Assembly (NCBI RefSeq): GCF_000315625.1
Contig: NW_005434590.1
Coordinates: 275,950 to 339,949, forward strand
Source of the DNA: Guillardia theta CCMP2712
Lineage: Eukaryota > Protista > Cryptophyta
DNA length: 64,000 nucleotides
Direction: 5' to 3'
Shown here: in pieces, positions 21,401 to 46,398 of the stretch
How the letters are laid out: each line of letters starts with the position of its first letter
Numbering within the stretch: the stretch's first letter is position 1
Position numbers and translations under genes: made by a program
Notes under the pieces: generated by a model
The model's input: the letters and a program-made list of their open reading frames with translations, nothing else
What the model was told of the DNA's origin: nothing
Database searches by the model: none

Positions 21401-21979
21401 GGCTTTTTGCTATCTAATGAGGGTCGGAGGTAAGCCCTGCGCAGCTGGGCGGTGTGCGCAGCACACAGAGCAAGGGATCCTTTGTCAGTCATCACATAGC
21501 AACCCTCCACACAATCACAAACCCTCCACAAACCCTACACAAACCCTACACACAGCCTCTCCCTTACCATTATCATCTTACTTTCTATCTATAATCTAGT
21601 CTAAATATATGTATTGTGTAGGGTGTGTAGGGTGTGTAGGGTTTGTGATGAGTTCATCAAAATAAAAATAATTTCAAAGGGGGTAACTCAAATCAAACCC
21701 TACACCCTACACACTCTCCACACTCTCCACTAACTAGTCTTCTATGTACTAGATGATGATCATGGATGTTGGCGGAGGCGCGGAGGCGCTACCCCAAACT
21801 TTTCTACATCCTTTAATCCAACCCCTCCTCGCCATATGAAATAGTTTGGGGTAACGCCTCCGCGCCTCCGCAGCCCCTCCTACCCCAACTATCACAAAGA
21901 TTCCTTAATAATTTTTCATAAATCTCTCTTACATCACATCAGGTATTCAATAGAGTATTTATTCATTCTCTCTATCTTC
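21401..21979 (+). repeat. Left long inverted repeat (~580 bp)
   Basis: Imperfect reverse complement of 45827-46398. Confidence 0.92.
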
Positions 21980-22554
21980 TCTCTATCTTCTCTCTATCTT
22001 CTCAATCGCTATCTCCATCAATGGGAACAGGGGAACATCTGGTAATTTAAGCGGAGCACCGGTAACTTACGGGAAACTAGGGGTGGTAACTTATCTGGAA
22101 CTGGGGGTGGGGTAGGTGGTAACCTATCTGAAGTGTGGGGGGTGGGGTCATATAAATACCCCCAAGCAACAGTAATAATTCCTTTGGTGGTCAGCACACT
22201 TAGAAAAGTGCTCTCTGATAATATCGTGAGATCGATTCCTACTGATTCCTGCTCTATGACCTGATGAACTGGCGGGCACCCAGTGATTCGGGAAGTGGAG
22301 TCGGATGATGGGGGGGCCGGTTGTCCAAAGCTTGACGTCCCGATGCTCACTGGCTTGTCAGTGGGGTGCCCCGTCGGGTCTGATGGTGATGGCGATCGGT
22401 CTGACCACCAAAGGCCCGAGTAGTACTCTGAACCAGCCGCAACCATACCCGTTAGCCTAAGCCGTATTCAAAATAAAAACCGGGCAATTTTGCTCGAATT
22501 ATCAAAAAAATGATGACCATCGGGCAAAAAAGCTCAAGCGCTAAATGGTACTAA

Positions 22555-23025
22555 ATGATAGAGATTAATCAACAAGTCTTAAAATGCCCCTCCACCAACA
22601 CGGACATAAATGAGATCATCTCACACATCTATTGGGAAATCAAAGAAACCTACGACGAGGTCTTCATCGATGATATTGATGATGAAGATGAGATTGAGCA
22701 ACATAAGCGTATCATAGAGAGGGATGACCAAGACCTTGACTATGAAATCCATATGGCCATTGATAACTATGTTATTGATGAGCTTGATGACAAACGCTAT
22801 GCTATCATAACACAAGGCCGTGAGCCTCTGCTTGTATTGATGGAGTACATTGAGGAGTACGGCCAACCAAACTTGGATGATGCCCTCCTTAAAGCTGAAA
22901 GACTAAGAGGCATTGTTTCTTATCAGATCATATACGAGCAAATCCAAGCCTTGTTTTGTCAAGAAACCATAACAATTGAGATATCATCTATGATGGAGCT
23001 CATAGATATCTTAGATAAGGATTAA
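22555..23025 (+). CDS. PLV hypothetical acidic protein (156 aa)
   Basis: ATG ORF with partial promoter motif aaaaaaatgatg at ~22504. Confidence 0.65.
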   Translation: MIEINQQVLKCPSTNTDINEIISHIYWEIKETYDEVFIDDIDDEDEIEQHKRIIERDDQDLDYEIHMAIDNYVIDELDDKRYAIITQGREPLLVLMEYIEEYGQPNLDDALLKAERLRGIVSYQIIYEQIQALFCQETITIEISSMMELIDILDKD

Positions 23026-23069
23026 ACTGACAAGAAGAATAATATGTATCTATATTTTAATATTGCTCA

Positions 23070-23084
23070 AAAAAATGATATAAA
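23070..23084 (+). promoter_or_regulatory. PLV promoter motif AAAAAATGATATAAA (also 28562-28576, 28884-28898, 29209-29223 on +; 47008-47022 on -)
   Basis: Five exact 15-mers, each about 23-60 nt upstream of an ATG on the same strand. Confidence 0.8.
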
Positions 23085-23995
23085 GGATTGGCATATATAA
23101 CCATCAAACCAAAAAGAATAAATATCTAAGCCTATATCAAATAGATGGCACGCGAACGAAAAGCTCCTGAGTTGTTCAAACCAACCAACTTCAAGGCTAC
23201 GGCCAAAAAGGCTCCGGCACGGAAGGCTCCAATCCAGCCTACAAATGTCGTTCGACCAGTTCGACCTATTACTGTTCAACGAGCATCGCCAGCCGATGTC
23301 CCAGTCTTGGCTGCCATCCCTATCGACGAGCCAGTTCGACCATCCAGGAAGCCTGTTGCTAAGGAACCGCCAACCGTGGCTGCTGCTTCATCATACTCTA
23401 AGAAATATAGGCATCCAAAGGACTACAAGGATCTTAAAATGGTCAATGACCAGATCACAAGAGATATGAATCTAGCTGTTCATAATGTTGTATTCAAGAG
23501 ATATAAAGATGATGAACTCGACTTCACAATCTATGACAAGGCTTTGAAACTACAAACATCTCTTAGCCCATTCAATGGCCCAAACTCCTGGACGAGCAAG
23601 GTTTGCGGTCTCGACTACAAACCATCACAATATGACAGCCTACCATATCTTAACAGGCCTACACTTGCCGAGATCAAGGACAATGTCTATGTTGGCGAGA
23701 AATTGAGTGATTCCAAGACCGCATCTAATCTCAACACTATCATTAAGACAACGACTGCCCAAGTTGACCCCAATGATCTAACAACCGTCTTGAAGCACCA
23801 CAGACAGATCATCTTGGAGATGCTCCTTTATGCTCAGGAAAACAAGAGGTCACCAAGCACATACTGGGACTATATAAGGGCCTTGACAAGGCTTGCGAGG
23901 ATCTGCCTCGGTGATGATAACGAGCTTTATAAGAAGCTGGCTAAGCTCGGAGATGACTTTGACAAGGCTGTCATCAAGAACATTGAGACAAAGAA

Positions 23996-24922
23996 TGTTG
24001 AAGTTCCCAGTAACCTTCTCTCCACAGACGGTGACACAGTCACAGTAGCAGTGACACTCGAAGTAGACAGTGATAGCACCGACTGCAAGTTTCTGTAGCA
24101 GTGGTAATAGATATCACGAATGGCCGCGCAGGAATGATATCAGGATACAGAGAACAAACGGAGGTGATAAGAGATTGGTATAGATGGTCAAGCTTGTTTA
24201 CTTCAAGCAATCCAGTCTCACAGAGACCATACACCTCGTTCTCCTTTCCCTGTCCTGCCAATGCGTGCGGCGCTTCTTCCTCTTCCTCGGTCCCTAAAAT
24301 AGGGGCTGCCCGGTCCTAGGAACTACCACTACCGGTACTCTACGCTTCTTATCTGCGATATGATTCTTCGACCGGTCCGAGGCCTGGTTCCGTACCTTGA
24401 GGGTCCCCTGAGAAAGAGTCATAGGCTTGACATGACGAGGTTTTCGATTCTCATCCAACGCTCTCTGTGAAGTTGATGTAGCTGCTCCCTTGACCTTGAC
24501 AGGTCCTGTGTCTCCGTAGGAGCATGCTTGGAGGTGGTCTCGTGCATTCCTTGTATGTCCTCCGCTAAGATGATCATGATAGTACTGTCTTCTTTGATCA
24601 GACCCCTTGTTCTCCCATGTCCATGACTTCAGGGGTGATACTTCCAATCTCCCCTTGAGCGTAGCCGTATTCTGCCACCGTGACGGTGTCATCTGCTGTC
24701 CTGTCGTGGACTGATATAAGCTGACTCGCTTATCTCCTGCTGCCATCCACGAGTCCTAAGTTCTTGCTGTCTTCTTCATGATTCTCCTACGTCGTCCTTA
24801 TTGTAGCTGTTGCTGTCCTCTCCAGGGATGCATTCCGAGGCTCTAAGCATCTGTGCACTTGAGCCACGTCGATTACTTGGCATTGTCTGAGGTGAAGCTT
24901 CCTCCTATCAGGTGCTTCAACA
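23996..24922 (-). repeat. 3' LTR of the Copia-derived element
   Basis: No differences seen from 26601-27527; the spurious ORF translations are identical. Confidence 0.95.
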
Positions 24923-26600
24923 CCCTCCCTTGGCTCTTGTGTGCCGATGCCAGCATTGTTACTTTGCCGCGCCTCCATTGACGGTGTCAGGCTTGTCAAA
25001 TTTGACTATGCCTTTCAAATGACCTGCTGCGGTTGACTCTTCGCGCGTCGTCGCCGCAGTATTCCCTCCCTTGCCTAGAGTAGGCGGGAGCTGTTGCTTG
25101 ACAGCAAGGTGGGCTCATGCTTGGTCTCTGGTCGTCTGCCTTGAAGCTGTATGGTTGCTCATCAGACTTGATATTCCTCTTTCCATAAGCGATCAGCCTC
25201 TTGACTTGACTTTCGCAGTAGGGCTGTGCATGGTACTGAAAGGTTCTCCTCAGCGCCCATCAGCACTGATGTGCCTGGCGACTTGGGACCTCCTTCATTT
25301 CTGCAGCATCATTTCATAACTTCGATCGAAGGTATGTCTTCATCGTCTGCTTCTTCGTCTTGCGAAGGCTTGGCGCTTCAAGCTGCCTTTCATTTCTTCA
25401 ACTCTGCTGTAGAGTTGGTTCGTCACAGTGTCATCACGTCGCCATCACAATATAGTGGCTTGTAACGAGGCTTTGGGACGTCTCCCTTCCTCGGTCTTCA
25501 CAACCTTCAAGCTTTCATCTGCCGTGCTCTAGGCTTGCCGCTTCAATCATCGCGGTGCTTGACCAGTGGAATCATGAGGTAACCCGGTCCTCTCCTCACT
25601 GTTGGCCACGTACAGGCTTTGAGGTTGGATTGAAAACAGCTCTTGTCACTTTTGACATTCAGAGCAACTTTGATCAGGACTGATCCCTCCATCATCGAGA
25701 TTTTCTCGCTGTCATGTCACCCCTCAGCTTCTTTGCCACACTCATCATCATGGTGGGAGAGCTATCTGGTGGCCTCGTCGTCATCTTGTGCGACTCCTGG
25801 CTCTGCTTGGCCCGGGGATCCCTGTGACTCGTCCATGTCACTTGACATAGGGATGATGCGAGGCTCGATGCTGATGTCATCATCAGATGTTCTCAGAGGT
25901 TCAGCCTGTCATGAAGTTCAGTATTCAGGTATGATAGTGAAAAGATATGATATTCCCTGATTTTGATTGTTCATTTAGTGAACCCTCCCTGACTGTCTCT
26001 GGTGTCGAACAGATGACCTCAGGCTGAAGTGGGTCCCCTGTGACTTCGCATCATCCATCTCCCTCCCTGACGAGGTGCAGGGAGCTTGGCTAGCTTGACA
26101 AGGTCTTGCATGAAGCAGCGGCGTAATGATGGTCAAACGGAGACCTGAGACATGTCGTTGCCGAACAAGAACGATGCTAGCTGACGAATTTTGGAGACTG
26201 GGCAGATCTTGGTGAGAATGTCCGCAGGGTTGTATGTAGTAGAAATCTTCACAGCGATGATTTCGTTTTCATCCACACTCGTTCGAGTGTACGGTGAAAA
26301 ACGGATTGAGCGTACCCCACATTTCTTCCTCCGTCTTAAAAACATTGTTGCCCGAATTTTCCTTAAGCTTAGTCAGGTCGATACTTGTTTTTGAGAAAGC
26401 TTCATGAATTTCCATTGCCATTTTGATATCAGAACCCATGTTTGACTCCAGGCTCAGCTGTTACTACCGTTGTCACTCCACAGATACTCTCCAACTGATG
26501 TCACTCCGAATGTGAGAGTAAGAGTCCACTGGTTGCCGTGATACAAGGTTTCTCGAGAAATAGAATATCTAGGCACTGATATTCTAAAAATTTTAGAATA

Positions 26601-27527
26601 TGTTGAAGTTCCCAGTAACCTTCTCTCCACAGACGGTGACACAGTCACAGTAGCAGTGACACTCGAAGTAGACAGTGATAGCACCGACTGCAAGTTTCTG
26701 TAGCAGTGGTAATAGATATCACGAATGGCCGCGCAGGAATGATATCAGGATACAGAGAACAAACGGAGGTGATAAGAGATTGGTATAGATGGTCAAGCTT
26801 GTTTACTTCAAGCAATCCAGTCTCACAGAGACCATACACCTCGTTCTCCTTTCCCTGTCCTGCCAATGCGTGCGGCGCTTCTTCCTCTTCCTCGGTCCCT
26901 AAAATAGGGGCTGCCCGGTCCTAGGAACTACCACTACCGGTACTCTACGCTTCTTATCTGCGATATGATTCTTCGACCGGTCCGAGGCCTGGTTCCGTAC
27001 CTTGAGGGTCCCCTGAGAAAGAGTCATAGGCTTGACATGACGAGGTTTTCGATTCTCATCCAACGCTCTCTGTGAAGTTGATGTAGCTGCTCCCTTGACC
27101 TTGACAGGTCCTGTGTCTCCGTAGGAGCATGCTTGGAGGTGGTCTCGTGCATTCCTTGTATGTCCTCCGCTAAGATGATCATGATAGTACTGTCTTCTTT
27201 GATCAGACCCCTTGTTCTCCCATGTCCATGACTTCAGGGGTGATACTTCCAATCTCCCCTTGAGCGTAGCCGTATTCTGCCACCGTGACGGTGTCATCTG
27301 CTGTCCTGTCGTGGACTGATATAAGCTGACTCGCTTATCTCCTGCTGCCATCCACGAGTCCTAAGTTCTTGCTGTCTTCTTCATGATTCTCCTACGTCGT
27401 CCTTATTGTAGCTGTTGCTGTCCTCTCCAGGGATGCATTCCGAGGCTCTAAGCATCTGTGCACTTGAGCCACGTCGATTACTTGGCATTGTCTGAGGTGA
27501 AGCTTCCTCCTATCAGGTGCTTCAACA
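26601..27527 (-). repeat. 5' LTR of the Copia-derived element
   Basis: Direct repeat of 23996-24922. Confidence 0.95.
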
Positions 27528-28608
27528 GAATCAACTCAACATAGACGAAGAGAGAAACTTCTTACCGTATTCATACCTGTTGAATATGATCGATGATATG
27601 GAGCAAAAATACCTTGAGGCAAAAACTAGATACGGTCCACAAGGCTATCATACATACAAGCTACATATGAACACTTTGATCTTAATGTCATATCTGTATA
27701 CGCCACCCCTGCGTTTGGAGCTATCTAATGCCCGCTTCACTAAGACCCTAAGAAATTTAGAACCAGGCAAAAACTACATATACATTCCGCAAAATGGCAA
27801 ACTGGTCAAGTATGTCCTGAATGAGATCAAGAAGAAACACAAACCAATCGAATATGATGTTGGATATCCTATGAATGATGATCCTTTGGCAAAGAGGCTT
27901 ACCGAGTTCATCAAGATGTCCCTTCGTGAGTATCCAAGGGAATACTTCATAACCCTTTATACTGACAAAAATAAGCCAGCTAAAAAAGCAATGACAACAT
28001 ATCTCTCAAGTATGTTCGCTGACCATTCCTTGAACGTGAATATGTTCCGCTCTTCCTACGTGAGTTGGTTGTACTCGAACAATGTTAGCACGAATATATT
28101 GGAAGAAGTGGCATTGAAGATGCGAACAAGCATCTTGACGTTTATGAAGAATTATAAGAAGCTGAATTCTGAACAGATTAGGGTCAAGAGGGAAAGAGAT
28201 GATGATAACAGACCTATTACAATCAATGAGGCGGATGATTCACCAGCGGCTCGGGGGCCTGTCGCAAATCCTATTGCTGCCATTCCACAACCACAACCAA
28301 GACAACCCCATAAGGAGTACAAAGACCCTATCGTCTTAAGACGCGCCAGGGTGAACCGTTACATTGAGAAGACAGGCGGTAGAGAGGCCTTCAATGAGCG
28401 ACAGAAAAAGTACTATAAAGAGAACAGCAAAACTCTATACATCAAGAAACTGTTGAGGATGTACAACACCACCAAGGAGGCAATAGATCCTATCCAACAT
28501 ACCATAAAGAAGTATAAGCTCTACAAGGAAGGGAATGAATGGAAATCTCTGGAGCTTGGGTAAAAAATGATATAAAACAGATATGATAAATATTATATTG
28601 ATAGAGTG

Positions 28609-28875
28609 ATGTTCGACTTGACTTTCTATGATAAAGTCCTTAAATGGTCCGATGAGTTGTCTATAAAACCAACACATAGCAGCGTATTATCTCGTCATCA
28701 AATGTGGTGTCTTAAAAAACGAGGGGATTGTGGTGGAAAAGATCACAGAGATATGGTCAATGATAGATTGTTTGGTCGGTACGTTAAGAGTTGGATGATT
28801 TACTTTGATATGTCATTAGACAAGATACATAATCCAAAAATGCCTTTGAAAGTGATTGGAATTGATAAGATATAA
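28609..28875 (+). CDS. PLV small hypothetical protein
   Basis: ORF downstream of promoter motif 28562. Confidence 0.6.
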   Translation: MFDLTFYDKVLKWSDELSIKPTHSSVLSRHQMWCLKKRGDCGGKDHRDMVNDRLFGRYVKSWMIYFDMSLDKIHNPKMPLKVIGIDKI

Positions 28876-28926
28876 AAAATGAAAAAAAATGATATAAAGT
28901 ATTTAGCAATAATATTATATGATCAT

Positions 28927-29142
28927 ATGAATAAAGAAGAAAAAAAAATGAGCGCATCATTAGAATGGTATTATAAAAAGAGAGAGAATGATCCTGAATA
29001 TGTTCAGAAAGAACGTGAACGTAAGAAATTAGATAATCATAGAAGATATCATTCATCTGAAGAGGAACGACAAAAACAAATTAAAAGATCTCTTGATAGA
29101 TACTATAGAATTAAGGCCCAAAAACTGGCCATCGTTCAATAA
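28927..29142 (+). CDS. PLV small basic helical protein
   Basis: ATG 28 nt after promoter motif 28884; Lys/Arg/Glu/Tyr-rich. Confidence 0.6.
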   Translation: MNKEEKKMSASLEWYYKKRENDPEYVQKERERKKLDNHRRYHSSEEERQKQIKRSLDRYYRIKAQKLAIVQ

Positions 29143-29263
29143 TTCATACAGTTTTTTTGAAAGCATGCTATATTTTACTATTTGTTCTCATTTTTTGTGT
29201 TTTGCCATAAAAAATGATATAAAGATTTCAGCCATAAAATTATCTAACCTAAGAATAAAGGCA

Positions 29264-31588
29264 ATGAACGGTTCAAGCGGTTTGAACAATTACCACTATC
29301 TTTTGAAGAAAGGCTTTGCTTTGACAGCTGTCCACCCCCGCAAGTATGAGGGCGATCGGTTTGTCAAGGGAAAGATCGACGGAGTTGATAAGCCTTATAT
29401 TGATGCTGGTTGGACTAAACAAGAAGTTAATGAGGGGAATGCTTCGGTAGTCTACAACATTATCAATGACAAACCATTCTATGCTGTCCGAACTGGTGAG
29501 ATATCAAACATTATCGGCGTTGACATCGATAGTGACAAGGCTGAAAAAGATGGTATCCCTCGCTCTTTGGAGTTTGAGGAGTGGTGTAAGGCTTCTGGTA
29601 CATATACCATCAAGTCCCCACACGGATATCATTTCTATTTCAGATATGATAAAGATATTAGTAAGAGCGGATCGATACTCGATCATATTGACATTCAATC
29701 AAATGACAAGTGCCTCTTTGCTCCAAATGTCAAACGGGTTGATGGTGTGTATGAAGTCATAAATGAAGCACCTGTAAAGGCAATGCCTGATAAAGTCAAG
29801 AGCTTTATTCTTAAGCATAAACAAACCAGAGATTGTGGGATGGCTGCCAAGCAAGAGAAGGCACCCGAAGCACCCGTCAAAGGTCCTAAAAGTTCAGATG
29901 GGGATGCTGAGGATAGTGAAATAGATGTTGATGATGTTAAAAAGTTGCTCAACCTCATCTCTCCTGATTGCGATTACAATCGTTGGATCAGGGTCCTCGC
30001 GGCAGTCAACAACACTCTCGGTTCTAATGATAAGGCCTATGATATCACCGATGAATGGTCCTCAAAATCTATCAAATATGACCCAAGATCATTTGGTCGT
30101 ATTTGGAACTCGGTAAGGGGCTATGAAGAGATTACAATTGGCACCTTACATCACTATGCTAAGGAAGAACAACCTGAACAATACAAGGAATTATTTGCGC
30201 ATAAAAAAACGAGCATACCAAGAGTTGATATCAGCAAATTGAGGAAATATGAGGATATCAAGGAAGCTTTTGAAAAAGATACGTTTATGGTTTGTATCCC
30301 TCCCGTATATTTTCATAAAAATCGCTATGGTGATAAATACACAGTTGTGAAAGAGGATGGCATCAAACAGGCATATAGGCATCTCAGGTATATCAAGAAT
30401 GTCGGAACAGATAATAAGGGTAATATCAAGACAAAAGAAGCAAGCTTCATCACTGACTGGGTTTCCGACCCTGATAAACGCGTTTATGAATCAGTGAAGT
30501 TTGATCCAAGCAGGAAAATAGATTCTGATATATTCAATACTTTCACTGGATTTGAGGCCGAAAAACATCCCGAAATTGATGAGACGCTTATGATGGAATT
30601 GGTACAACCATACATTGACCACTTTGATATGCTCTTTGGCAGTGATGCTAGAATATTCGTTATGAAATGGATGGCGAACATCATCCAAAATCCAACTCAA
30701 AAATCTGGTGTTTGTTTGCTTTTGAAGAGTGAAGGAGAAGGTTCCGGAAAGACCACACCATTTGAGTATTTCGGAAGAAAGGTGATTGGAAACAATCATT
30801 ATAAGAACACCAGTGACCCAGAAAACGACCTCTTTGGTAGATTTGCTACTGCGATTCACAACTCATTGCTTGTCCAACTTGAAGAGATTAAAGGTGTCGT
30901 GTTTCATAAAAACGCTAGTACGTTTAGAGATATGATAACCAAGAATACAGCACGATGGGAGGTTAAAAATGTCACTGTCAAAGACGATGATGAGAACTTT
31001 GCGAGCTTTATATTAACCACCAACAATGAGAACCCTATAACTGTCACTCCAACTGATAGGCGCTTCTGTGTACTAAATGTAAATGAAGCTATGATTGGGA
31101 ATGTTGAATACTTCGAAAGATTTATTGAAGTGGTAGAACATCCGTCTTGGGGCAGGGCGTTGTTTCAATATCTTAGAGATTTGGAAGGCGTGCCAAAGAA
31201 CATCGCCCAATTCCAAAACCAAAGATATAAAAGCGAGGCTTATGATGATATGCGAAAGCAAAACATCCCTAACTGGGCCAGGTTCTTGATCAATAAGGTG
31301 ATGCTCAAAACTTCTCTCATCAAGAACAACTCTGTTGAAATCAAACCAACAGAAGATGTAAAAGCTAGTAAATTATATGATGAATACGTTCAATACTGCG
31401 AGAAGACACGTGTTGAAGCTGCGACAATGAAACAGACTGGATTTGCTATAAAGATTAAGTCTGTTGAGGGGATCATAAAACAGAGAAGTAGATTATGTTG
31501 TAATTATACGATTGATTGGGAAGCTGTTGAAAAATGGCTTGTCAAAAAGAATTACTGGGATGATGATAATATCACAGTAGAGATATAA
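29264..31588 (+). CDS. Primase-polymerase + PriCT-2 + SF3/D5-like helicase fusion
   Basis: GVDIDSD and SPHGYHFYF (Prim-Pol); DYNRWIRV...DEWSSKS.KYD...ITIGTL (PriCT-2); GEGSGKTT, VQLEE, TTNNEN, DRRF (helicase). Start placed at ATG 29264, after the promoter motif. Confidence 0.9.
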   Translation: MNGSSGLNNYHYLLKKGFALTAVHPRKYEGDRFVKGKIDGVDKPYIDAGWTKQEVNEGNASVVYNIINDKPFYAVRTGEISNIIGVDIDSDKAEKDGIPRSLEFEEWCKASGTYTIKSPHGYHFYFRYDKDISKSGSILDHIDIQSNDKCLFAPNVKRVDGVYEVINEAPVKAMPDKVKSFILKHKQTRDCGMAAKQEKAPEAPVKGPKSSDGDAEDSEIDVDDVKKLLNLISPDCDYNRWIRVLAAVNNTLGSNDKAYDITDEWSSKSIKYDPRSFGRIWNSVRGYEEITIGTLHHYAKEEQPEQYKELFAHKKTSIPRVDISKLRKYEDIKEAFEKDTFMVCIPPVYFHKNRYGDKYTVVKEDGIKQAYRHLRYIKNVGTDNKGNIKTKEASFITDWVSDPDKRVYESVKFDPSRKIDSDIFNTFTGFEAEKHPEIDETLMMELVQPYIDHFDMLFGSDARIFVMKWMANIIQNPTQKSGVCLLLKSEGEGSGKTTPFEYFGRKVIGNNHYKNTSDPENDLFGRFATAIHNSLLVQLEEIKGVVFHKNASTFRDMITKNTARWEVKNVTVKDDDENFASFILTTNNENPITVTPTDRRFCVLNVNEAMIGNVEYFERFIEVVEHPSWGRALFQYLRDLEGVPKNIAQFQNQRYKSEAYDDMRKQNIPNWARFLINKVMLKTSLIKNNSVEIKPTEDVKASKLYDEYVQYCEKTRVEAATMKQTGFAIKIKSVEGIIKQRSRLCCNYTIDWEAVEKWLVKKNYWDDDNITVEI

Positions 31589-31611
31589 TTAGATTGATGG
31601 TTAGTCTTTCC

Positions 31612-31827
31612 CAACCCTACACAAAATCACAAACCCTACACAAACCCTACACACTCTATTTTCCTTACCATAACAATGTCATTATATTATTTTATTTAGT
31701 ATAAATAGACACTAGTGTGTAGGGTGTGTAGGGTGTGTAGGGTTTGAAATGAGTTGAGGGAAATAAATAAAATAAAAAAAAGGGTAACTCATTTCAAACC
31801 CTACACCCTCCACACCCTACACACTCA
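31612..31827. repeat. Internal copy of the ACCCTACAC iteron module (putative replication origin)
   Basis: Same forward-reverse-forward repeat layout and spacers as ~21500-21730. Confidence 0.75.
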
Positions 31828-31930
31828 GTAACAAATATAGAATGTTTCCTATAATAATCTTACCATCTCAGTCACATAATAGGAAATGTGGATAGTTTTG
31901 ATGAAAAAAAACAATCTCCCAACAATATAA

Positions 31931-32254
31931 ATGAGCAAGTATACCTATGCCTCTCTCTCTCCATCTCAAGCAAAGCACAAGAAGTACAAGTTAGTACTCT
32001 ATGACAAAGATCAGAAGAGGATCAAGACTGTTCAGTTCGGTGATAGTCGATATCAGGACTTCACACAGACCCACAATGATCAACTTAGGAAGTACTACAT
32101 AGCGAGACACGATAACGGTCGTGAGGATTGGTCGGTCCCTGATACCCCCGCATCCTGCGCAAGGTGGATCTTATGGGATCAGTACACAAAAGAGAAAGGA
32201 TTTGAGAACTACCTCAGGCGATTCCACTTGAAGCGCCTAGATCTGTCTGACTAG
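31931..32254 (+). CDS. Tlr6F-like (DUF5754-like) protein
   Basis: KHKKY...TVQFG..RYQDFT..H....R..Y..RH...ARWILW pattern typical of this PLV/virophage/giant-virus family. Confidence 0.8.
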   Translation: MSKYTYASLSPSQAKHKKYKLVLYDKDQKRIKTVQFGDSRYQDFTQTHNDQLRKYYIARHDNGREDWSVPDTPASCARWILWDQYTKEKGFENYLRRFHLKRLDLSD

Positions 32255-32780
32255 GATGGTTAGAATAGCCTCCGAGTATATAAGGAATATATCTATGTTT
32301 AGATATGACAGACCCCATATTACTCTTGATGAATTCTGGGATCCCATTCACAGACTCCATAAGAGTGTCATAAGACTGGATGTAATTATTCAGTTTGTCG
32401 GAACTAATATCCCTATTAGTTAAGGTCTGTTCAATGCTATGCTCTAACTTACTAAATTTGCTTGCGAGGTCGTAGTACAAACTCGCTTTTTCACTTATCT
32501 TCAATTGGCTATTTACACCTATTAATACAGCCGTGACCGTATTGAAAACGATATTTATAATTCTCATTATTTTATCGTCCTGAAAACTGCCATTTAAGAC
32601 AGCAAGTGATGATGATAAGATGATCAATGGGATCATAACTATCTGCTTCCACAGATTATACCATCCCGCGGTTCTATTACATAGGATGCTCATGATCCTT
32701 GCCATCTCTTTGTACTTCTGCCATAGCTCGTTCTCATTGCTTTCAGTTCGTTCCAGTCTGACATTGATGTCAGGCATCAT
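32214..32780 (-). CDS. Two-transmembrane (SLATT-like) protein
   Basis: Two hydrophobic helices (IVMIPLIILSSSLAVL; IINIVFNTVTAVLIGV) followed by a helical cytoplasmic tail. Confidence 0.6.
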   Translation of the reverse strand: MMPDINVRLERTESNENELWQKYKEMARIMSILCNRTAGWYNLWKQIVMIPLIILSSSLAVLNGSFQDDKIMRIINIVFNTVTAVLIGVNSQLKISEKASLYYDLASKFSKLEHSIEQTLTNRDISSDKLNNYIQSYDTLMESVNGIPEFIKSNMGSVISKHRYIPYILGGYSNHPSQTDLGASSGIA

Positions 32781-32981
32781 TGGTCCTTATATATACATTA
32801 GAAGAATATTGGAAACCTTGTAGTGTCCCATCAGCGGCCACATACTGCCTTCCCTCCATAATCAATCTAATGCTATGATTCAACGCATCCAGATGCTGTC
32901 GATTGTGTACTGAAGATATTATTTTTTCGTTGGCCATCCATCACTATAAGAATAGTCTAAAAAAAAGATAAGACGTGATGA

Positions 32982-33221: not shown

Positions 33222-33314
33222 ATTCTTTTAACTATAGATAGATTTTTTTATAACCTTTTCCGCTTTGCGCAAAAGCTTAACCAAAAACAGCGGCGCCGGG
33301 GGCCGCAACCCCCG

Positions 33315-37273: not shown

Positions 37274-37307
37274 TGTGACTGGTATATTTATAAAAAGAAA
37301 AATATTA

Positions 37308-37841: not shown

Positions 37842-37860
37842 TTATATAACTGGCATATTT

Positions 37861-38169
37861 TTATTCGATCACCTCGATGCCCTGAACTATGCCACTGATT
37901 TGATCAGCCTTGTCCTTCATCTCTTCGATCTCTTTCTTCAATTCTGGATCCTTCTCATAGTCTGGTTCGGTCTTATCTGGATGGTATAGATAGTCAAGAC
38001 AGGCTGTATAGAGGATTGATGGGGGGATGTCTGGATACATCTGGCTGATATTGTTCACCATTTCCATTGCCTCCTTATGCTTCCTGTCTCTCTCCTCCTC
38101 CTCCTCGATCTCTTGGAGCTGCTGTGAGACGTCGATGAATTCACTTCCGGTCATCTTTATTATAAGCAA
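37861..38169 (-). CDS. PLV hypothetical protein
   Basis: Tightly packed ORF downstream of the ATPase. Confidence 0.65.
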   Translation of the reverse strand: MLIIKMTGSEFIDVSQQLQEIEEEEERDRKHKEAMEMVNNISQMYPDIPPSILYTACLDYLYHPDKTEPDYEKDPELKKEIEEMKDKADQISGIVQGIEVIE

Positions 38170-38172
38170 CCA

Positions 38173-39084
38173 TTAAAATTCTAGGATTCTATCCCAACAT
38201 CTCAAGAAGTGGCCACCATCTGGGCACCTAGGGTGGTTGTTTACGGTAAGCCAGTTATACTTCTCTTCAATACAGTGTTCATATAATTGTTCAAACACCT
38301 CTGGTTTTACTAGGCCGCTGATCTCGTCATATATACCTTCCATAATCACCTTCTTGTTCATACATCGATATATCATATACACATCGATGTTGTTTCGTAC
38401 GATCTTTGGGATGGATTTGAGATTTTGAGTTGTGAATATCATATTGATGCCGTAATGCCTATGCTTGATTAGGAAGTTGCTAAGCTTGTTGTTCTTCTTT
38501 GTGTTGAAGGCCTTGTTATCTGAGATGAGATCATCGAAGACAAAGAACACCACAGGTGGCTTCTTGTATTTAAGATTGCCAAAGGCGACATCAGGCTCTT
38601 GGAAATCGTACTTATAGAGCAATTCAAGTTCATCCATTGTCAATCTGTCTTCACCGACCTTCATCCATCTGCTATAAGCCTTCTTATACTGATCATATTC
38701 CTCTATGTCCTTCTTTATCTGCTGGACCTCATCAATCTTCTCTTGGAGTTTATCCTCAGAATACTCATCAACAACATCATTCTCAAGGTCTAGCTGCTTG
38801 ACTGTCTCTAATATGGTATTGGATTTGCTCTGGACGGTAGGAGAGAACCACACCACCTTGATATCGATCTTCTTGCTATCCTCTGGGTCATAGAACGGGT
38901 ACTTTTCATAATGGTGGAATAATTTCGCTATCCCGAATGTTTTACCGCAATTCTTAGAGGCTACCGCAAGTATTGAACAGTACACAGGAGGCAGGAAAGG
39001 ATTATCGGAAGTTGGAAGCTTATTCTTCTTGTAAGGTTTAGGCTTGTTATCTAGCAATGGTATCTGGTGCTCTGTTATATCCAT
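38173..39084 (-). CDS. A32-like (FtsK-HerA) genome packaging ATPase
   Basis: Walker A ASKNCGKT, Walker B FFVFDD, RHYGINMIFTTQ, IPKIVRNN. Confidence 0.93.
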   Translation of the reverse strand: MDITEHQIPLLDNKPKPYKKNKLPTSDNPFLPPVYCSILAVASKNCGKTFGIAKLFHHYEKYPFYDPEDSKKIDIKVVWFSPTVQSKSNTILETVKQLDLENDVVDEYSEDKLQEKIDEVQQIKKDIEEYDQYKKAYSRWMKVGEDRLTMDELELLYKYDFQEPDVAFGNLKYKKPPVVFFVFDDLISDNKAFNTKKNNKLSNFLIKHRHYGINMIFTTQNLKSIPKIVRNNIDVYMIYRCMNKKVIMEGIYDEISGLVKPEVFEQLYEHCIEEKYNWLTVNNHPRCPDGGHFLRCWDRILEF

Positions 39085-39163
39085 TTACTAATTGATAAGA
39101 AATTAGTAATAGCTAGGCCTTAGCAGATCACTAACATAATTGAGGCGTTCCTGGTTGACCTTC

Positions 39164-39643
39164 TCACGCAATCGTTCGTTGATCGCGTTCAAGGCTTGTT
39201 AATCTTCCAAGATTTTTATCATCAGAACCATGGTGGGGATAGCGTGGCTCTGAGCGTTTGACTCTCCTAACCACAATCTCCTCATCGCTCTCTTCTTCGT
39301 CATCGCTCTCCTCGATAATGATCTTCTTCTTCTTCTTAACAATCTTAGATACCTTGGGCGGATCATTTTGCTCCTGTGCTGGTTCGACTGGTTTAGCAAC
39401 GAGCTTTTCCACAGTCTTATCAAACTCATCACCTTCCTTCTTCAAGGCCTCCATTTTGATTAATTTGTTAAACTTGCTCTTTTGATTCAACTTAGCTTTT
39501 TGCTTTCTTGCTTCCTCTGCTTTGATGCGCATTAATTTGAGACGTTCCAAAAGTTCTGGCGAGCACTCCTTTTTCTGCTTGGTGACCACCTGTGCTTGTT
39601 GGTCAACATCTGTCTCTTCAATGACCTTCGGTTTTCTTCCCAT
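39164..39643 (-). CDS. Lys/Glu-rich PLV protein
   Basis: ATG 39643, MGRKPK...LERLKLMRIKAEEARK...KKKKKIIIEESDDEEE. Confidence 0.7.
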   Translation of the reverse strand: MGRKPKVIEETDVDQQAQVVTKQKKECSPELLERLKLMRIKAEEARKQKAKLNQKSKFNKLIKMEALKKEGDEFDKTVEKLVAKPVEPAQEQNDPPKVSKIVKKKKKIIIEESDDEEESDEEIVVRRVKRSEPRYPHHGSDDKNLGRLTSLERDQRTIA

Positions 39644-39681
39644 TTGTAAGAAAGTAAAGAAAAAAAAATTACTTAAATTGC

Positions 39682-40026
39682 TCAAGGGCCATGAACTGGC
39701 CGAGCCATCTTTGGAACATCCTTAATATTGTGCTTAGTGTACATCACAGTAACATCACGATTACCCACCATCTCTTGAAGCATTGGTTGGAAATCCTCGT
39801 AGTTAACATCTGGCCTCGATTGCTTGGAGTTGTAGATGTCACGCTTAAAAGCTGTGTCACGCTGCTGATAATAGTTAGAACTGGTAGGATAGGGCATTTT
39901 ATTGATATCATCGTTTGGATGGATCCGCGGGTTCACAGTGTGATGATCGACTTTATTCACTTCGATATCTAGGAAGCTTAAATGGTTCTTGTAACCATAG
40001 CTGAACGTGCTTGGTTGGAGATACAT
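39682..40026 (-). CDS. PLV hypothetical protein (114 aa)
   Basis: ATG ORF directly after the major capsid gene. Confidence 0.65.
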   Translation of the reverse strand: MYLQPSTFSYGYKNHLSFLDIEVNKVDHHTVNPRIHPNDDINKMPYPTSSNYYQQRDTAFKRDIYNSKQSRPDVNYEDFQPMLQEMVGNRDVTVMYTKHNIKDVPKMARPVHGP

Positions 40027-40062
40027 TCTTCTTTTAATCTAATGCGAGATTATTTAGTCTAG

Positions 40063-41560
40063 TTAATTGATACTAATTTGGTTTCCTGAACCGATAGTCA
40101 AATGTCTTGTTTCACAGCAGATGATAAGAGGTAACCATACCTGGTCTGAGGAACTCTTACCAGATGTAACGCTTCCTCGCGTGGACCACTCGATAGAAAC
40201 AGGGAGCTGCCTTGTGTCGAGGCCTGAAATAACCATAGTGCCTCCCGCATCGCCAACGTGCGATAAACTAAGGGTGTCGCAGAAGAAGTACTTCACATAA
40301 TCGCTAATACTCTTATTCCCAGCATAAAAACCAAGATCAGCAGACTGATGAAGATTGAATGCTTCAACTGTGTTCTGAATACAGTTCATCAGATTGGATG
40401 GAACCTGTGGTAGCTTCTCAGATCCGATGGTCCATTGGCTGGTGACGAGCTCTTCACCATTCCTTTGGAAGTATACGGTTTGGTTGAAGGTGTTTTCTGA
40501 TGGTCCTAGGATAAGGGCCTCTCCAAGGGTTTTGTCAGTTGGTAGCACAAATCCACTCACTTTAGAGAGATCATCGCGGTCAGCCCTGATGAATGTCCCG
40601 ATCATATAATCGAGACTATCGCTTGCGATTGTGAACCGTGTCGTTTGCGACTTATACGGGCTTGCCTGGCCAAAGAATGTGGTATAGTTTGGAAAATAAA
40701 GCTCGTAATTTGTCCCTTTCATAAGCTGATTTTTAAGGCCCTCATAATACCATCCAGGCATATTGATTTTGGTCACGTTGGCTTTGATGTCGCTTAGCTT
40801 ATAGCTTGGGGCTGGAAATATATTCTCGCTTGCTGTTGTAGAAGTAGTTCCTTTAGAATTTCCCAAAACAGCAGCACTTGCAAATGTGATGCTGATCTGA
40901 ACTTGACCAATCATTGAAGTATCTATGACGTTAATGTTTCCTTGCTGTAGGACACCTAAGAAATTTTTGATGAAATAAGTTGATCTGTCCTTAACAAGAT
41001 TGCTATCAAGAGCTGTTGTGCTAACAAATCTTGCAAATCGTGCGTATGTACTAATGGTGCCATCATCATTGACAACGCTCTTGCTCGAGGGATCCACATT
41101 CAGACCACAGCATTGAGCGCGGCCCATAGCATCTTGGTTTAGTGCCACAATGTCAAACAAGATGTTCTGGATCATGGCATAATCGGTGATCACGGTGCTG
41201 AACCACAACGCCATTGAATTTTATTTGTATCTCTTGGATAAGACTGTAAGTGTTCCTCGGGAATCGGAGAGATGTCACAGATTGTGACCCAGATGCTCCT
41301 GATAGAACACCGTTTGTTGTCTCTCCAGTAAATTCCAAGCTAAAGGTCGACAGATCAAGCAATGAAGAGTAAGGCAACGTGATCTGGATCTTCTGGTTAG
41401 GTCCAACCGTGGAGGGCGTGGTAGGCGTGATTTGTATCTTGGTTTTCGACATGTTCGCTAACGAGCGCACCCGCCATTGTAAGTTAGTTGGAACGTACAT
41501 TCCAGCCGTTTCAGGAGAGGGCCCAGACATTGCGGCTTGCGACATTGCGTTTTGAAACAT
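40063..41560 (-). pseudogene. Major capsid protein (double jelly-roll, PgVV-like PLV type), frameshifted near 41190
   Basis: Two overlapping ORFs. N-part has ITLP..SLLDL.TF and FPRN..SLIQ.I.I..NG; C-part ends SGLDTR...HLTIG.G.QI. Removing 4 nt gives a 497-aa protein. Confidence 0.82.
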
Positions 41561-41607
41561 CTTTGCTTTTAAAAGACAGACAGAAAAAAAAATAAGATTT
41601 CAAATTC

Positions 41608-42417
41608 TTAATTTAAGCCGTATTTTTTCCTCAACATCATCTCATAATGTTCAAGGCTGCTTGGATGAGAAATAGTATTTGCATGATAAGCCCTCGATAG
41701 TATCCCCCATAATCCATACTTAGTGATGAGGTACTGCGATAGCTTATGGATAGGATTCGAGAATGAATGTTCAAGCTGTATCTTGTATTTTTCAAACAGC
41801 TCGATGAATCGAATCTGCCTGTTATAAGACATATTCGAGAACCTCACAATCTGGTCTCTTGTCCAATCGCTCAAGGCCACAGAGGGTATCTCTACTTGCT
41901 GGCCTGGAGATCTTGAACCGGCTGCCGGTGAGTTAACTTCATCTTGTGACATCGGTCCGCTGTCTTCAAATTCCGACTCGTTAACTCCTCCTGATCCGAT
42001 GCCTAAGGCTTGGTTCATAATAGAATCGGTCTGATTAAACGATTCACGCTCTGGTTTGATGACATCTGGGGCTAAATCTTGAACATTGTTGTCATCATTC
42101 GGTGCTAATTGTTGACTGACCACATCAGGATTGTATTGCGTTGGGATTTCAGTGCTCCCCTGTGGTTGGGTTGCCGCAGCACCATATCGAGATGGAATCC
42201 CTAACCCCTCGTTATTGTACATTGGCAGGCTAGGGGCCTTGTTCATATATGGTATAATGTTTTGTATGTGTGCCTGACTGGGTGGCTCAGGATCATCAGT
42301 GTTGGATTGGAGCTCTGGAATATATTTATTCTTCGATTGCTGATTGTTCTCATTTTTAATATTCACCTCAACATTTACACCTGTCTTCCTATTTCTTACT
42401 TTGGTCTTCACAGTCAT
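41608..42417 (-). CDS. PLV hypothetical protein (269 aa)
   Basis: Intact ATG ORF upstream of the major capsid gene. Confidence 0.7.
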   Translation of the reverse strand: MTVKTKVRNRKTGVNVEVNIKNENNQQSKNKYIPELQSNTDDPEPPSQAHIQNIIPYMNKAPSLPMYNNEGLGIPSRYGAAATQPQGSTEIPTQYNPDVVSQQLAPNDDNNVQDLAPDVIKPERESFNQTDSIMNQALGIGSGGVNESEFEDSGPMSQDEVNSPAAGSRSPGQQVEIPSVALSDWTRDQIVRFSNMSYNRQIRFIELFEKYKIQLEHSFSNPIHKLSQYLITKYGLWGILSRAYHANTISHPSSLEHYEMMLRKKYGLN

Positions 42418-42441
42418 TTATCTTATTGATTGAAATTATTT

Positions 42442-45400
42442 TTAACTACAATGATATGAACATCCTATGAAAACAGCTATATACTCAACTCCTTGGTAAG
42501 TCTCATATCGATGCTTAAAATTCTTGTAATACCAATCTGAATCTTCATCAATAAAATCAACTGAACAGCTTGTCTTGGCTACTGTATAATTATGAAGTAA
42601 ATCATCAGATTGCTTCATACTGTATCCCTTGATTGGACTTGAACATAGATAATCGCCATTCTCTATGGCTTCAACGCCATAATTACAGCACCATATAGCC
42701 CCCTCGCCGACCGCATTGATCATAACTCTATTGTTGTCAAGCTTAGGATATGAATAATGCCACCTTCCAGTCTTATAGATTCTTTTATCTCCTCCCTCCA
42801 CGTTGGAGATCACACCATACACAGCTTTGTCACATTGAATGTCTGTTAATTTGATTATTGGCAGCGAGCTATCAATGCGAATGTTAGAGCTAAAATCATA
42901 ATCTGTTCTATTCAAGTCTTGATAAAATCCAGTGGTAGAAACCAATAGACCCTGATAGTAGTCAAGGTTAGATGTTATCTCATCTAATAGATTTGAGGTT
43001 ACAGCAATACAACGATGAGAGCCCGTGAAGTCTAGATCATCATTGGCATTGTCATTATGTCTCAACCATTGCTCACCTGTATCATCTAAAGCACCATATT
43101 GAAACATCAAATCATTTGTTGCGCTGGTTCCTCCAAATGATACAGAATTCAATAATTTATAAATAACCCATTCTCCACTATCAACAGCACCAGAACCACC
43201 CTTGGGTATATAGATACGGTCCAAGCTTATTCCAGTACATTTGACATAATTATCTGTTATTCTTCCCCATTCTCCAAGATTTAAATAACCTTGATCATTC
43301 ATTGAAATACCTTTGTAAATAGCGCATCCACTAGATCGTCCATAAAGTCTTGTCCAAGTGCTGTCACTCTGTAAAATTTCAGTGCCTGAAATATGATAGC
43401 TCCCATCTGTTTCAATGTTGCCAGTAGATGAAATTGATGAAGGACTAAAAGCACCACAACTCAATGTGCCTGAACAAGTAACATTTCCTATCAAAAATGA
43501 TGTTAGGCTAACATACAAAGTGCCTGTGACCTCCAAATCATCGGCATAATCTGTGGCGACTAGATTCCCATTGACGGTCAAATCTCCCGAGCATGTAACA
43601 TTACCGGTAAAGGATGATGTGCCTGTTACACTTAGATTATTCCCACAGCTTACGGCTCCGGTTAAGGTTGATGTGCCTGATATGCTTAGATTGTTTGCGC
43701 AATTGATATTAGCAGCAAAATCAACATCAACGGTTATAGTTCTAAAATCAAAATTGGTTCCATGTGGATAAATCTTAATAACCTCTCTTTCTTTTACAAG
43801 AGCACCATATCCAGACATACCAGTTGCTGAAAATCCTTGATATGGATTTGCTTTATCACCTCCAAGTATTGATATAGAAGCATAAGTTGCTCCCTTTGTG
43901 ATTGTTTCAGTTGCTGAACCACTTGCCCAAGTTGATGAAGTGTGAACATGAAAAGCTAAGTTTGTTTTCCTATTTGTTCTTTCATCTGATGGTGTGCCTA
44001 AACTGTTTTGAATAACCAAGGATTTGCTTTCAATCCACGTATTATTGTTTGCTTCATCAAGAGCAACATCAATATTATTTTTGTACTTCCATCTATTATT
44101 GACATCGTCATAAATGCCCCATTCATTATTGCCATCATGCGTAAATACAACCCTGCCATCAATGCTGTATCCTTCCCAATTATTAGTTCCTGAACCATTG
44201 ATTTGAACACTGCCATATTGACCTGAGACAGTTGATAAATAGTTTGTATCGTTGATGTATAGATCCCCAACTCCAATGTTCAACCCATCAATATATTCCT
44301 TGGTGTAATAGTTCTCGTTAGAAGTGTCAATCTCGGTCTTGGTGTAATAATTGGGTAAAACAACATCATCAAGAAACAATGTCTTACCTTTGAAGATTGT
44401 TTTGTAGTCTCTCAAAACATTGATCATCTCAATAATACCACCAGAGGTTTCGCTTTCCTGTAGTGTAAAACCAAACACATGTTCATCTAATTCTGTTTGT
44501 GTCAGTTCATTCCCTAGTGTTAAGATCTCCTCGCCTTGGAATGATATAAGCCTGCTATCTAATTCAGTAGTAGGGTTTCCTTCAACATCGATCTTATATG
44601 TGCTATCATATACATATGCTTCGCCAGCAGCTAGATTGAGTTGTGATCCATCTGTTGTGTTGCGTGAATATATCTTGATTGCTCTGTCTTGATGAAGTCT
44701 ATGTATTATCTCTGTCTCTAACAGATTTATAACAGTGCCAATAGCAAGTCGTAAAACATTGATCCAGTTCAATAAAAACAAGCCATCGGCCTTGCTAGTA
44801 TTCAAGGATGAAGCTATCAACCCCCCAACAAAACCAGCACCAGCGGAAGCAAAGTCGCCCAGCCCAGAGAAGATATCGAATGCGCTATTTGCTGTATCAA
44901 CTATATCTCCAAGATTGGCTTCATCATCTGGGTTTGATATGCTGTTAACACTATCTACTAGTCCATTGATGCTATCAATGATGTCCTGAACAGTAATATA
45001 TGAGCCATCTTGCTTTCTCAAACTGATTGTATAGGTAGCCGCTTGATCATCATAGAGCAATTGGATCAGATCGGAGTCATTGTTGAACAGTGCTGTCAAT
45101 GTTTGATTGTTGGCATTCTCAGCTAGGTTTATGATAGATTGTAAGGTAGATATTGCGTTGGAGTTGTTTTCAACATCACTTGATAAATCTGTTATTGTTG
45201 ATTGTAAGGTGTCAATGCTCGTGGTGTTGGCATCAACACTTGTTTGTAGGGTGTCAATGCTCGTAGTGTTGGCTTCAATGCTCGTTGCGTTGGCTTGAAT
45301 GTTCGCTGCGTTGGCTTCAATGCTCGTTGCGTTGGCTTCAATGCTCGTTGCGTTGGCTTCAATGCTCGTTGCGTTGGCTTGGATATCATCTGTGTTTGTA

Positions 45401-45516
45401 CTAACAACACCCTCCAATGCTTTATGTGCCTCATCTAATTTGATGATAGCTGTTTTAAGAGAACTGATCTGATATTGAACTGTATCAACAGACAAGCCAC
45501 TGATCCAGGTGCTCAT
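42442..45516 (-). CDS. Fibre-like protein (1024 aa) with heptad coiled coil and C-terminal chaperone/autocleavage-like domain
   Basis: ANATSIE 21-nt repeats (~45205-45380), G.L.V.G beta repeats, C-terminal FTGSHRC...GEGAIW...NGDYL.SS...GC.YHC typical of large-DNA-virus fibre proteins. Confidence 0.75.
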   Translation of the reverse strand: MSTWISGLSVDTVQYQISSLKTAIIKLDEAHKALEGVVSTNTDDIQANATSIEANATSIEANATSIEANAANIQANATSIEANTTSIDTLQTSVDANTTSIDTLQSTITDLSSDVENNSNAISTLQSIINLAENANNQTLTALFNNDSDLIQLLYDDQAATYTISLRKQDGSYITVQDIIDSINGLVDSVNSISNPDDEANLGDIVDTANSAFDIFSGLGDFASAGAGFVGGLIASSLNTSKADGLFLLNWINVLRLAIGTVINLLETEIIHRLHQDRAIKIYSRNTTDGSQLNLAAGEAYVYDSTYKIDVEGNPTTELDSRLISFQGEEILTLGNELTQTELDEHVFGFTLQESETSGGIIEMINVLRDYKTIFKGKTLFLDDVVLPNYYTKTEIDTSNENYYTKEYIDGLNIGVGDLYINDTNYLSTVSGQYGSVQINGSGTNNWEGYSIDGRVVFTHDGNNEWGIYDDVNNRWKYKNNIDVALDEANNNTWIESKSLVIQNSLGTPSDERTNRKTNLAFHVHTSSTWASGSATETITKGATYASISILGGDKANPYQGFSATGMSGYGALVKEREVIKIYPHGTNFDFRTITVDVDFAANINCANNLSISGTSTLTGAVSCGNNLSVTGTSSFTGNVTCSGDLTVNGNLVATDYADDLEVTGTLYVSLTSFLIGNVTCSGTLSCGAFSPSSISSTGNIETDGSYHISGTEILQSDSTWTRLYGRSSGCAIYKGISMNDQGYLNLGEWGRITDNYVKCTGISLDRIYIPKGGSGAVDSGEWVIYKLLNSVSFGGTSATNDLMFQYGALDDTGEQWLRHNDNANDDLDFTGSHRCIAVTSNLLDEITSNLDYYQGLLVSTTGFYQDLNRTDYDFSSNIRIDSSLPIIKLTDIQCDKAVYGVISNVEGGDKRIYKTGRWHYSYPKLDNNRVMINAVGEGAIWCCNYGVEAIENGDYLCSSPIKGYSMKQSDDLLHNYTVAKTSCSVDFIDEDSDWYYKNFKHRYETYQGVEYIAVFIGCSYHCS

Positions 45517-45536
45517 TTAATTAGAATGAAGATTAA

Positions 45537-45770
45537 TTAAAAATGGAGATAGACAGTTTCCTTTCTTATGCCAACACGGCACCGTTTTTTCCTATATGTA
45601 TGGGTGAAGCTCGATCGCTCATAATAACTGATCTGTTCCTTAGTCAGAAGCTGGTTTTGAATGAAGAATTGTAAGATATATTGATTTCTAAAGATGACCT
45701 CAATAAGATCCTTGATGAATGTATTGTATTCTTTTTGTTTTATGCGATAGATATGTTGAGCCTCATTCAT
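45537..45770 (-). CDS. PLV small hypothetical protein
   Basis: 77-aa ATG ORF at the head of the structural block. Confidence 0.5.
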   Translation of the reverse strand: MNEAQHIYRIKQKEYNTFIKDLIEVIFRNQYILQFFIQNQLLTKEQISYYERSSFTHTYRKKRCRVGIRKETVYLHF

Positions 45771-45826
45771 TTATACAATATCAATAAAATAATCTGAGTG
45801 GGGGTTCCGCCCCCCAACGGCGGTGG

Positions 45827-46398
45827 GAAGATAGAGAGAATGAATAAATACTCTATTGAATACCTGATGTGATGTAAGAGAGATTTATGAAAAATTATTA
45901 AGGAATCTTTGTGATAGTTGAGAGGATAGGGGTATAGTTGGCGGAGACGCGGAGACGTTACCCCTAAATATTTCATATGGCGAGTAGGGGTTGGATCTAG
46001 GGGTATAGAAAAGTTTGGGCTAACGTCTCCGCGTCTCCGCCAACATCCATGATCATCATCTAGTACATAGAAGACTAGAAGTGGAGAGTGTGGAGGGTTT
46101 GGAGTGTGGAGGGTATGATTTTGTTTACCCCTTTGAAATTATTTTTATTTTGATGAACTCATCATAAACCCTCCACACCCTCCACACCCTCCACAATACA
46201 TATATTTAGACTAGATTATAGATAGAAAGTAAGATGATAATGGTAAGGGAGAGGCTGTGTGGAGGGTTTGTGGAGGGTTTGTGATTGTGTGGAGGGTTGC
46301 TATGTGATGACTGACAAAGGATCCCTTGCTCTGTGTGCTGCGCACACCGCCCAGCTGCGCAGGGCTTACCTCCGACCCTCATGAGAGAGCAAAAAGCC
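45827..46398 (-). repeat. Right long inverted repeat
   Basis: Imperfect reverse complement of 21401-21979. Confidence 0.92.

Follow-up and report, generated by a model that had tools for sequence, protein, structure and literature searches.

Two spellings of an iteron array in a Polinton-like provirus of Guillardia theta, and a predicted helicase wing residue that tracks the variable base

A 64,000-nucleotide stretch of the Guillardia theta CCMP2712 genome (contig NW_005434590.1, positions 275,950 to 339,949 of the forward strand; this whole stretch is called the window, and its numbering is used throughout) contains a 26.4-kb provirus of the Polinton-like virus (PLV) type with inverted repeats (IRs) of ∼580 bp. 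An array of short iterons with the word CCT-N-CAC is found three times in the provirus: in the left IR, in the right IR and behind the primase-helicase gene. The middle base N differs between the arrays and, in related loci of phages, prophages and PLV-like DNA, co-varies with one residue in the predicted winged helix of the helicase. The provirus may be a chimera of two sister lineages. The features that bear on this reading are the following.

21401..21979, plus strand: left inverted repeat (IR-L)
21502..21730, no strand: left iteron array, a likely origin, its units grouped in three clusters that read C,C,A,A (forward), A,A,A (reverse) and A,A,C,C (forward), around spacers of 69 to 71% A+T
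21772..21871, no strand: left GC dyad, (GCGGAGGC)x2 ... (GCCTCCGC)x2, a 100-bp hairpin
29264..31588, plus strand: primase-helicase of 774 amino acids (reading frame open from 29165) with PriCT-2, an SF3/DUF5906 helicase and a predicted C-terminal winged helix
31484..31486, plus strand: codon AGA of Arg741 in the primase-helicase, the residue at the column that follows the iteron base and the last one of the first predicted wing strand (E737-741)
31614-31822, no strand: internal iteron array M, which repeats the IR array in direct orientation (78.5% against the left, 74% against the right)
45827..46398, minus strand: right inverted repeat (IR-R)
45941..46040, no strand: right GC dyad, (GCGGAGAC)x2 ... 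(GTCTCCGC)x2, with a 24-bp perfect stem
46081..46297, no strand: right iteron array, 9/9 units C-type, shorter than the left array by one 11-bp unit

The left array comprises seven A-type and four C-type units, the right array nine C-type units and array M eight A-type units and one C-type unit. A preliminary description of this DNA had given the iterons one predominant spelling per side; the right array is uniform and the left array mixed. Array M lies within the range covered by that description and is absent from it. Its first unit stands 25 bp past the helicase stop (31588), its nine units are separated by spacers of 79% and 76% A+T, and its dyad is the best kept of the three arrays. Array M is the likely primary origin, and an origin function of the provirus iterons in general is highly probable.

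In the Staphylococcus aureus pathogenicity islands (SaPIs), the origin consists of opposed iterons around A+T-rich DNA behind the gene of an SF3 helicase with a winged-helix tail (PMC9371898; 10.64898/2026.10.17.759575; published systems are compared throughout from portions of the cited texts). The provirus arrays share with the origins of SaPIs and other phage-inducible chromosomal islands (PICIs), which are served by self-loading SF3 helicases (Rep1, PriRep5), the 6 to 12 short opposed iterons, the A+T-rich spacers and the position downstream of an SF3 primase-helicase gene. Unlike the SaPI origin with its word TGCAACC, the putative CCT-N-CAC origin belongs to a eukaryotic virus with capsid genes and is present in three copies, two of them inside IRs, and in two spellings. 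SaPIs and PICIs are helper-dependent phage satellites at bacterial attachment (att) sites, and the provirus, in an algal genome and with a PLV-type capsid, stands outside this group. The surprise is limited since the origin design is already known from SaPIs.

A comparable layout is described for Gezel-14T and for entomopoxvirus-associated PLVs, in which the recombinase and the primase-helicase lie at one end and a repeat stands in the IR and again past this module (PMC11296320; 10.64898/2026.10.13.758929). The iteron word, the tracking residue, the two spellings and the direct-repeat modules outside the IRs of the provirus go beyond these accounts in the portions consulted. For PLVs without a protein-primed polymerase, the IRs have been proposed as origins (PMC11296320), a hypothesis that lacked a defined site. 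What the provirus adds is a candidate site with a likely reader, one residue and, inside the same element, a natural pair of which one is matched and the other mismatched.

Pattern scans find the CCT-N-CAC array in phage, prophage and PLV-like DNA. Among 56 nearest open reading frames (ORFs) of matching viral loci, 32 contain D5_N, DUF5906, Pox_D5 or VapE-like domains. Of 100 arrays (77 distinct viral, 22 genomic and array M), 53 are found between −150 and +400 bp from the 3′ end of an SF3 gene and 69 have an SF3 gene anywhere in the locus, as judged with an SF3 profile seeded from 30 of these same loci. Arrays upstream of the helicase gene or on both sides of it also occur (L141:8-3161 and L156:2882-5881), a bracketing like that in the provirus. 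The opposite arms of an array usually agree in the middle base, as at 31 of 35 distinct non-A viral loci (from 44, in a scan that forced one unit to be non-A). An unbiased scan of prokaryote genomes, with both bases left free, gives agreement at all 21 parsed loci of 22 (T7, C5, G5 and A4; the unparsed locus is all T, and two loci are near-copies). The literature surveyed (including PMC12220804, PMC9356565, 10.1101/2025.10.09.676808 and 10.1101/2022.07.28.501842, in portions of the main text, with figures, supplements and subscription papers outside the survey) contains no account of the CCT-N-CAC word, of PLV iterons or of an iteron-tracking wing residue.

The predicted winged helix of the primase-helicase comprises helices at residues 701-732 and strands at 737-741 and 746-751, with a model confidence (pLDDT, predicted local distance difference test) of ∼70-88. 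A Foldseek comparison of the model retrieves NrS-1 (4e-14) and SaPI PriRep1 (1e-8), and a sequence search with the tail returns only Cdc6 (E 0.45). In PriRep5, the wing touches iteron bases (10.64898/2026.10.17.759575), and in the model of the provirus helicase Arg741 is placed on the predicted wing strand. In a training set of 46 helicase tails from arrays at least 70% pure (L130, L190 and L259 dropped), one wing column holds Arg in all 21 A-type members. The C-type words in L190 were rejected as coding coincidences. Over the pooled 45 rows, Arg is found at this column with 25 of 26 A-type, none of 7 C-type, 1 of 3 G-type and 3 of 9 T-type arrays. It is the best of 255 columns (p 1.6e-7), followed by a column at 1e-3. 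The iteron base is unclustered on the helicase tree, with 14 changes against 14.8 after shuffling, so switches recur. Nine independent pairs give 7.2 in one direction and 0.0 in the opposite one (median p 0.016). The preliminary description had proposed to check whether motif variants track the recombinase or the primase; the base does follow the wing residue of the primase-helicase, and nothing ties the variant to the recombinase.

Two side observations concern such changes of spelling. L268 and L269, two close helicases from a single Chloroflexota bin, form a natural test pair: their arrays are T-type and A-type, and the wing site holds Thr and Arg, respectively. One 21.9-kb viral contig carries two arrays (L153:2902-3163 and L221:3951-4108) that both mix A and T spellings and is a candidate for a second specificity switch.

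A second difference between the ends of the provirus is found in the GC dyad, whose four 8-mer units all read GCGGAGGC in the left IR and GCGGAGAC in the right IR. G 21778, G 21786, C 21857 and C 21865 of the left dyad correspond to A, A, T and T in the right dyad; the four sites are symmetry mates at one offset of the 8-mer, and the units are otherwise identical between left and right. With the 37 changes between the IRs placed at random, the chance of such a four-unit change is 5e-6 over the IR and 2e-4 within the variable patch 21772-21890. The joint change of all four sub-repeats, first seen in the preliminary description, is thus borne out, and its view that random decay is unlikely gains support from these figures and from the finding that none of 13 CpG sites has changed. 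The latter also means that methylation decay is not the cause, and CpG mutation or mutation like repeat-induced point mutation was rejected; the context changes (2 of 4 GGCG and 2 of 3 CGCC) all fall within units. The inner stem has uncompensated changes at 21789, 21792, 21844 and 21847, so the concerted change is confined to the dyad repeat units. Both alleles are present in public runs, which excludes assembly error as their source: contig X5/15 has no differences from the left dyad, and contig X1/8 shows as many differences over 21748-21871 (14) as the right IR does. In one contig of run X5 a third spelling is present, and there both tandem units of an arm are altered.

The left and right GC dyads fold equally well, both with ∼−38 kcal/mol (z −9.6 and −11.8; none of 200 shuffles as good). 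The dyads might act as extruded hairpins like the origin stem-loop of pRN1, selected for pairing rather than for sequence. The pRN1 origin, used with ORF904, is likewise a GC-rich stem-loop of ∼100 nucleotides, with a 21-bp stem; its replication returned when symmetry was restored, and the pRN1 protein joins a primase-polymerase and an SF3 helicase to a winged helix in one chain, in a similar domain order (PMC4234260). The pRN1 stem-loop, according to the same text, follows the rep gene and is without tandem units, whereas the GC dyad of the provirus is confined to the IRs and is missing beside array M, next to the helicase. Pairing needs no joint change of tandem units, and iteron clusters outside any stem change as well. 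Selection for pairing is a very improbable explanation of the two spellings.

The GC dyad has no relatives among the sequences searched. A search of Rfam with the left end gives only generic hairpin matches far below the gathering scores, and the dyad pattern has no matches in metagenomes. The 127 viral pattern matches, 33 of them with an inverted partner, were taken as unrelated GC-rich repeats of bacterial type, and the AT-rich array loci L128-L419 contain no GC-rich dyad of at least 12 bp. In bacterial-type interspersed dyads (L006-L127) with the unit GCGGAGRC, the A/G position is free (36, 36, 28, 27). This freedom of the same 8-mer in bacterial and prophage DNA, the variable number of units between arrays and the existence of mixed arrays are what neutral concerted evolution would give, with slippage between tandem units and template switching across the dyad, a free base and unchanged specificity. 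Such a process does not account for the co-variation of the base with a protein residue over independent pairs or for the inner-stem mismatches left uncorrected beside the units. Furthermore, symmetric units agree in just 16 of 31 bacterial-type dyads of the same geometry, which indicates that geometry alone forces no agreement. As a general explanation, neutral concerted evolution is improbable; for the GC dyad alone it may hold.

The proposal in the preliminary description that the dyads are functional binding sites or stems is partly supported. For the iterons, it is well supported by the position behind SF3 genes and by the co-variation with the wing residue; the GC hairpin yielded neither a binder nor a relative. 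The GC dyad is most likely a second lineage-specific cis site of the ends, either a hairpin or a four-site operator.

The two IRs are 90.6% identical, with 37 substitutions in 566 columns and 19 gap columns, and the differences are distributed as in a mosaic. Five identical tracts total 353 bp, a length matched in none of 200,000 random placements, and two patches are diverged by ∼18%, with 10 differences in 55 sites and 20 in 108. Where the left and right arrays differ, the left equals array M at 12 of 14 sites, and the extra 11-bp unit of the left array stands at the change from C to A. Contig X1/6, an apparent recombinant with A-type outer and C-type inner units, may be a product of assembly bubble removal and was not used.

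The helicase itself is distinguished from its relatives at the same wing site. The residue is Lys in the four nearest relatives (P0016, P0001, P0017 and P0018), among which P0016 is 90% identical over the matched tail stretch and differs from the provirus helicase in four further wing residues. Lys at this column never occurs with A in the pooled set and is present with C, G and T. Arg741 is predicted, from the pooled comparison, to fit array M and the inner units of the left array and not the right IR.

Several readings are possible; the best of them, at roughly an even chance, is that the provirus is a chimera of two sister lineages, with an A-type replication module and left end and a C-type right end. 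Here, the IR arrays are copies of an array that is likely a SaPI-type origin read by the predicted winged helix of the primase-helicase, and the two lineages likely differ in their recognition word, spelled with A in one and with C in the other. The wing would read the middle base; slippage and conversion would spread a variant through an array, and selection would retain the spelling that the element's own helicase binds. A crossover or module swap may then have joined the lineages, with the extra 11-bp unit at the C-to-A change as the expected trace of an out-of-register crossover, and later conversion between the IRs may have removed most other differences. The GC dyad would have been carried along within the diverged patch. 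Tandem integration and module swaps have been proposed as sources of chimeras in PLVs (10.64898/2026.10.13.758929).

A single lineage in the course of a specificity switch would explain the iterons equally. In that case, a wing change from Lys to Arg shifted the preference to A, and rewriting of the arrays is proceeding outward from the helicase-proximal copy, with the right end lagging. This agrees with the falling share of A from array M (8/9) over the left array (7/11) to the right array (0/9), with the near identity of the left array to array M at the differing sites and with Arg being derived among the near relatives, by a codon one transition away from a Lys codon. It does not account for the two spellings of the GC dyad, for the 18% divergence of the patch 21778-21885 outside the repeats or for the differing direct-repeat modules outside the IRs, and the further wing differences from P0016 also speak against it. 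The one-lineage switch is possible and rather unlikely. The earlier suggestion of two lineages with different specificity is supported by the Arg helicase, predicted to be A-type, facing an all-C right IR, by the Lys of the relatives and by the mosaic IRs, and is weakened by the mixed left array and by the equal account of the iterons that a one-lineage switch provides.

The wider proposal, which is put forward tentatively from sequence comparisons and is less probable than the chimera, is that the middle base of CCT-N-CAC is read, from bacterial prophages to eukaryotic PLVs, by a single wing residue of D5/SF3 primase-helicases, as a code that gives sister viruses private origins. The provirus would then be a captured switch, an Arg/A replication module in a Lys/C genome with an unreadable right end. 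If the code is true, sequence could serve to pair an unknown virus's origin with its helicase, and mismatched spellings could reveal where mosaic PLVs have swapped replicons.

Several points weigh against the chimera and against the code. Arrays are often impure (13 of 31 in the non-A scan and 14 of 46 in the A scan, the other 18 and 32 being pure), and mixed arrays in the provirus and elsewhere mean that specificity may be loose; SaPI Rep1 discriminated only weakly in vitro (PMC9371898). The residue column was picked on the training rows, and the helicase tree is a quick one. Taken alone, the held-out set (146 new loci reduced to 12 non-redundant rows, 11 of them usable) has Arg in 4 of 5 A-type rows and 2 of 6 others (p 0.24). 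The pooled rows were counted without one duplicate and without the 12 rows of a third helicase clade, which has no A-type member and whose wing is unalignable, and restriction to A versus C leaves four pairs (p 0.125). Because Lys also occurs with G and T, the Lys of the relatives is no proof of a C-type parent. The left and right arrays have 45 sites in common against array M, which makes both ends close kin. No composition break and no boundary in third-codon-position GC content separates the modules of the provirus, and searches of viral contigs and metagenomes with helicase, ATPase and capsid queries returned no relative with readable ends, no all-A or all-C parental element and no relative with the GC dyad.

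The remaining features of the provirus are its other genes, a nested element and the outer modules.

20825..21400, plus strand: D1, direct-repeat module outside the left IR; starts at the host junction (core GC) with ATAAGAATGGTAAGG, ends with CTTTACCGCAT; without a gene
23145..23995, plus strand: probable tyrosine recombinase gene, 5′ part, interrupted by a long-terminal-repeat (LTR) element
23996..27527, minus strand: nested LTR element with identical 928-bp LTRs, splitting the recombinase-like gene
27528..28563, plus strand: 3′ part of the probable tyrosine recombinase gene
38173..39084, minus strand: packaging ATPase, with a Pox_A32 match (E 0.0035) that stays below the curated cut-off
40063..41560, minus strand: major capsid gene, divided between the overlapping frames 41153-41560 and 40063-41214, its 3′ part 100% identical to GUITHDRAFT_144246
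46401..47229, plus strand: D2, direct-repeat module outside the right IR, with both ends the same as D1; host DNA from 47230
46481-46984, minus strand: GIY-YIG gene inside D2

The provirus resembles the G. theta PLV elements 1-3 in host, capsid, ATPase, recombinase and IRs and is likely one of these three (PMC4642659); the internal structure of the IRs goes beyond that account in the portion consulted. The capsid call is based on the identical G. theta protein, on relatives in Hanusia and metagenomes and on the same paper rather than on profile matches, as neither the major capsid gene nor the minor-capsid candidate at 33315-34166 matches a Pfam or PHROG profile. The probable recombinase has no match in these collections either, and its single-sequence structure model (pLDDT 41) is too poor for use; recombinases in G. 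theta elements are described in section 6 of PMC4642659. Protein-primed DNA polymerase B (PolB) and the rve integrase, the marks of Polintons/Mavericks, are both absent from the scanned ORFs of the provirus. The stretch 32214-32780 has a weak SLATT_4 match (E 5e-4, below the cut-off), and SLATT genes are reported in Tetraselmis PLVs (10.1101/2025.10.09.676808). The LTR element contains no long ORF, and its flanks have only GAA in common.

The IRs are not terminal, since D1 (576 bp) and D2 (829 bp) lie outside them. The host junctions are located at 20824/20825 and 47229/47230, as placed by six empty copies of the host repeat in the window (sites 10440, 50552, 53868, 56999, 60273 and 63607), with a common 2-bp core GC and no target duplication. 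D1 and D2 look like tandem recombinase cassettes. If their outer ends were joined, a dyad resembling an att site (CTTTACC..GGTAAGG) would be restored around the GC core; at each junction between module and IR, 3 bases precede GCTTTTTGC. In each of the three arrays, the first iteron cluster is followed by CTTACCAT, a possible recombinase or accessory site that also forms the start end of D1 and D2 (20838, 21563, 31664, 31859, 46247 and 46414). Positions 21106-21140 in D1 appear by eye to be a diverged inverted copy of IR sequence from ∼21440-21475. Public run X1 contains several D-module variants and other host junctions. The integration target (19787-20824 and 47230-64000) is a repeat of the host, ∼3.3 kb long and present in multiple copies, both tandem and inverted; it carries a 630-amino-acid ORF with weak AAA matches.

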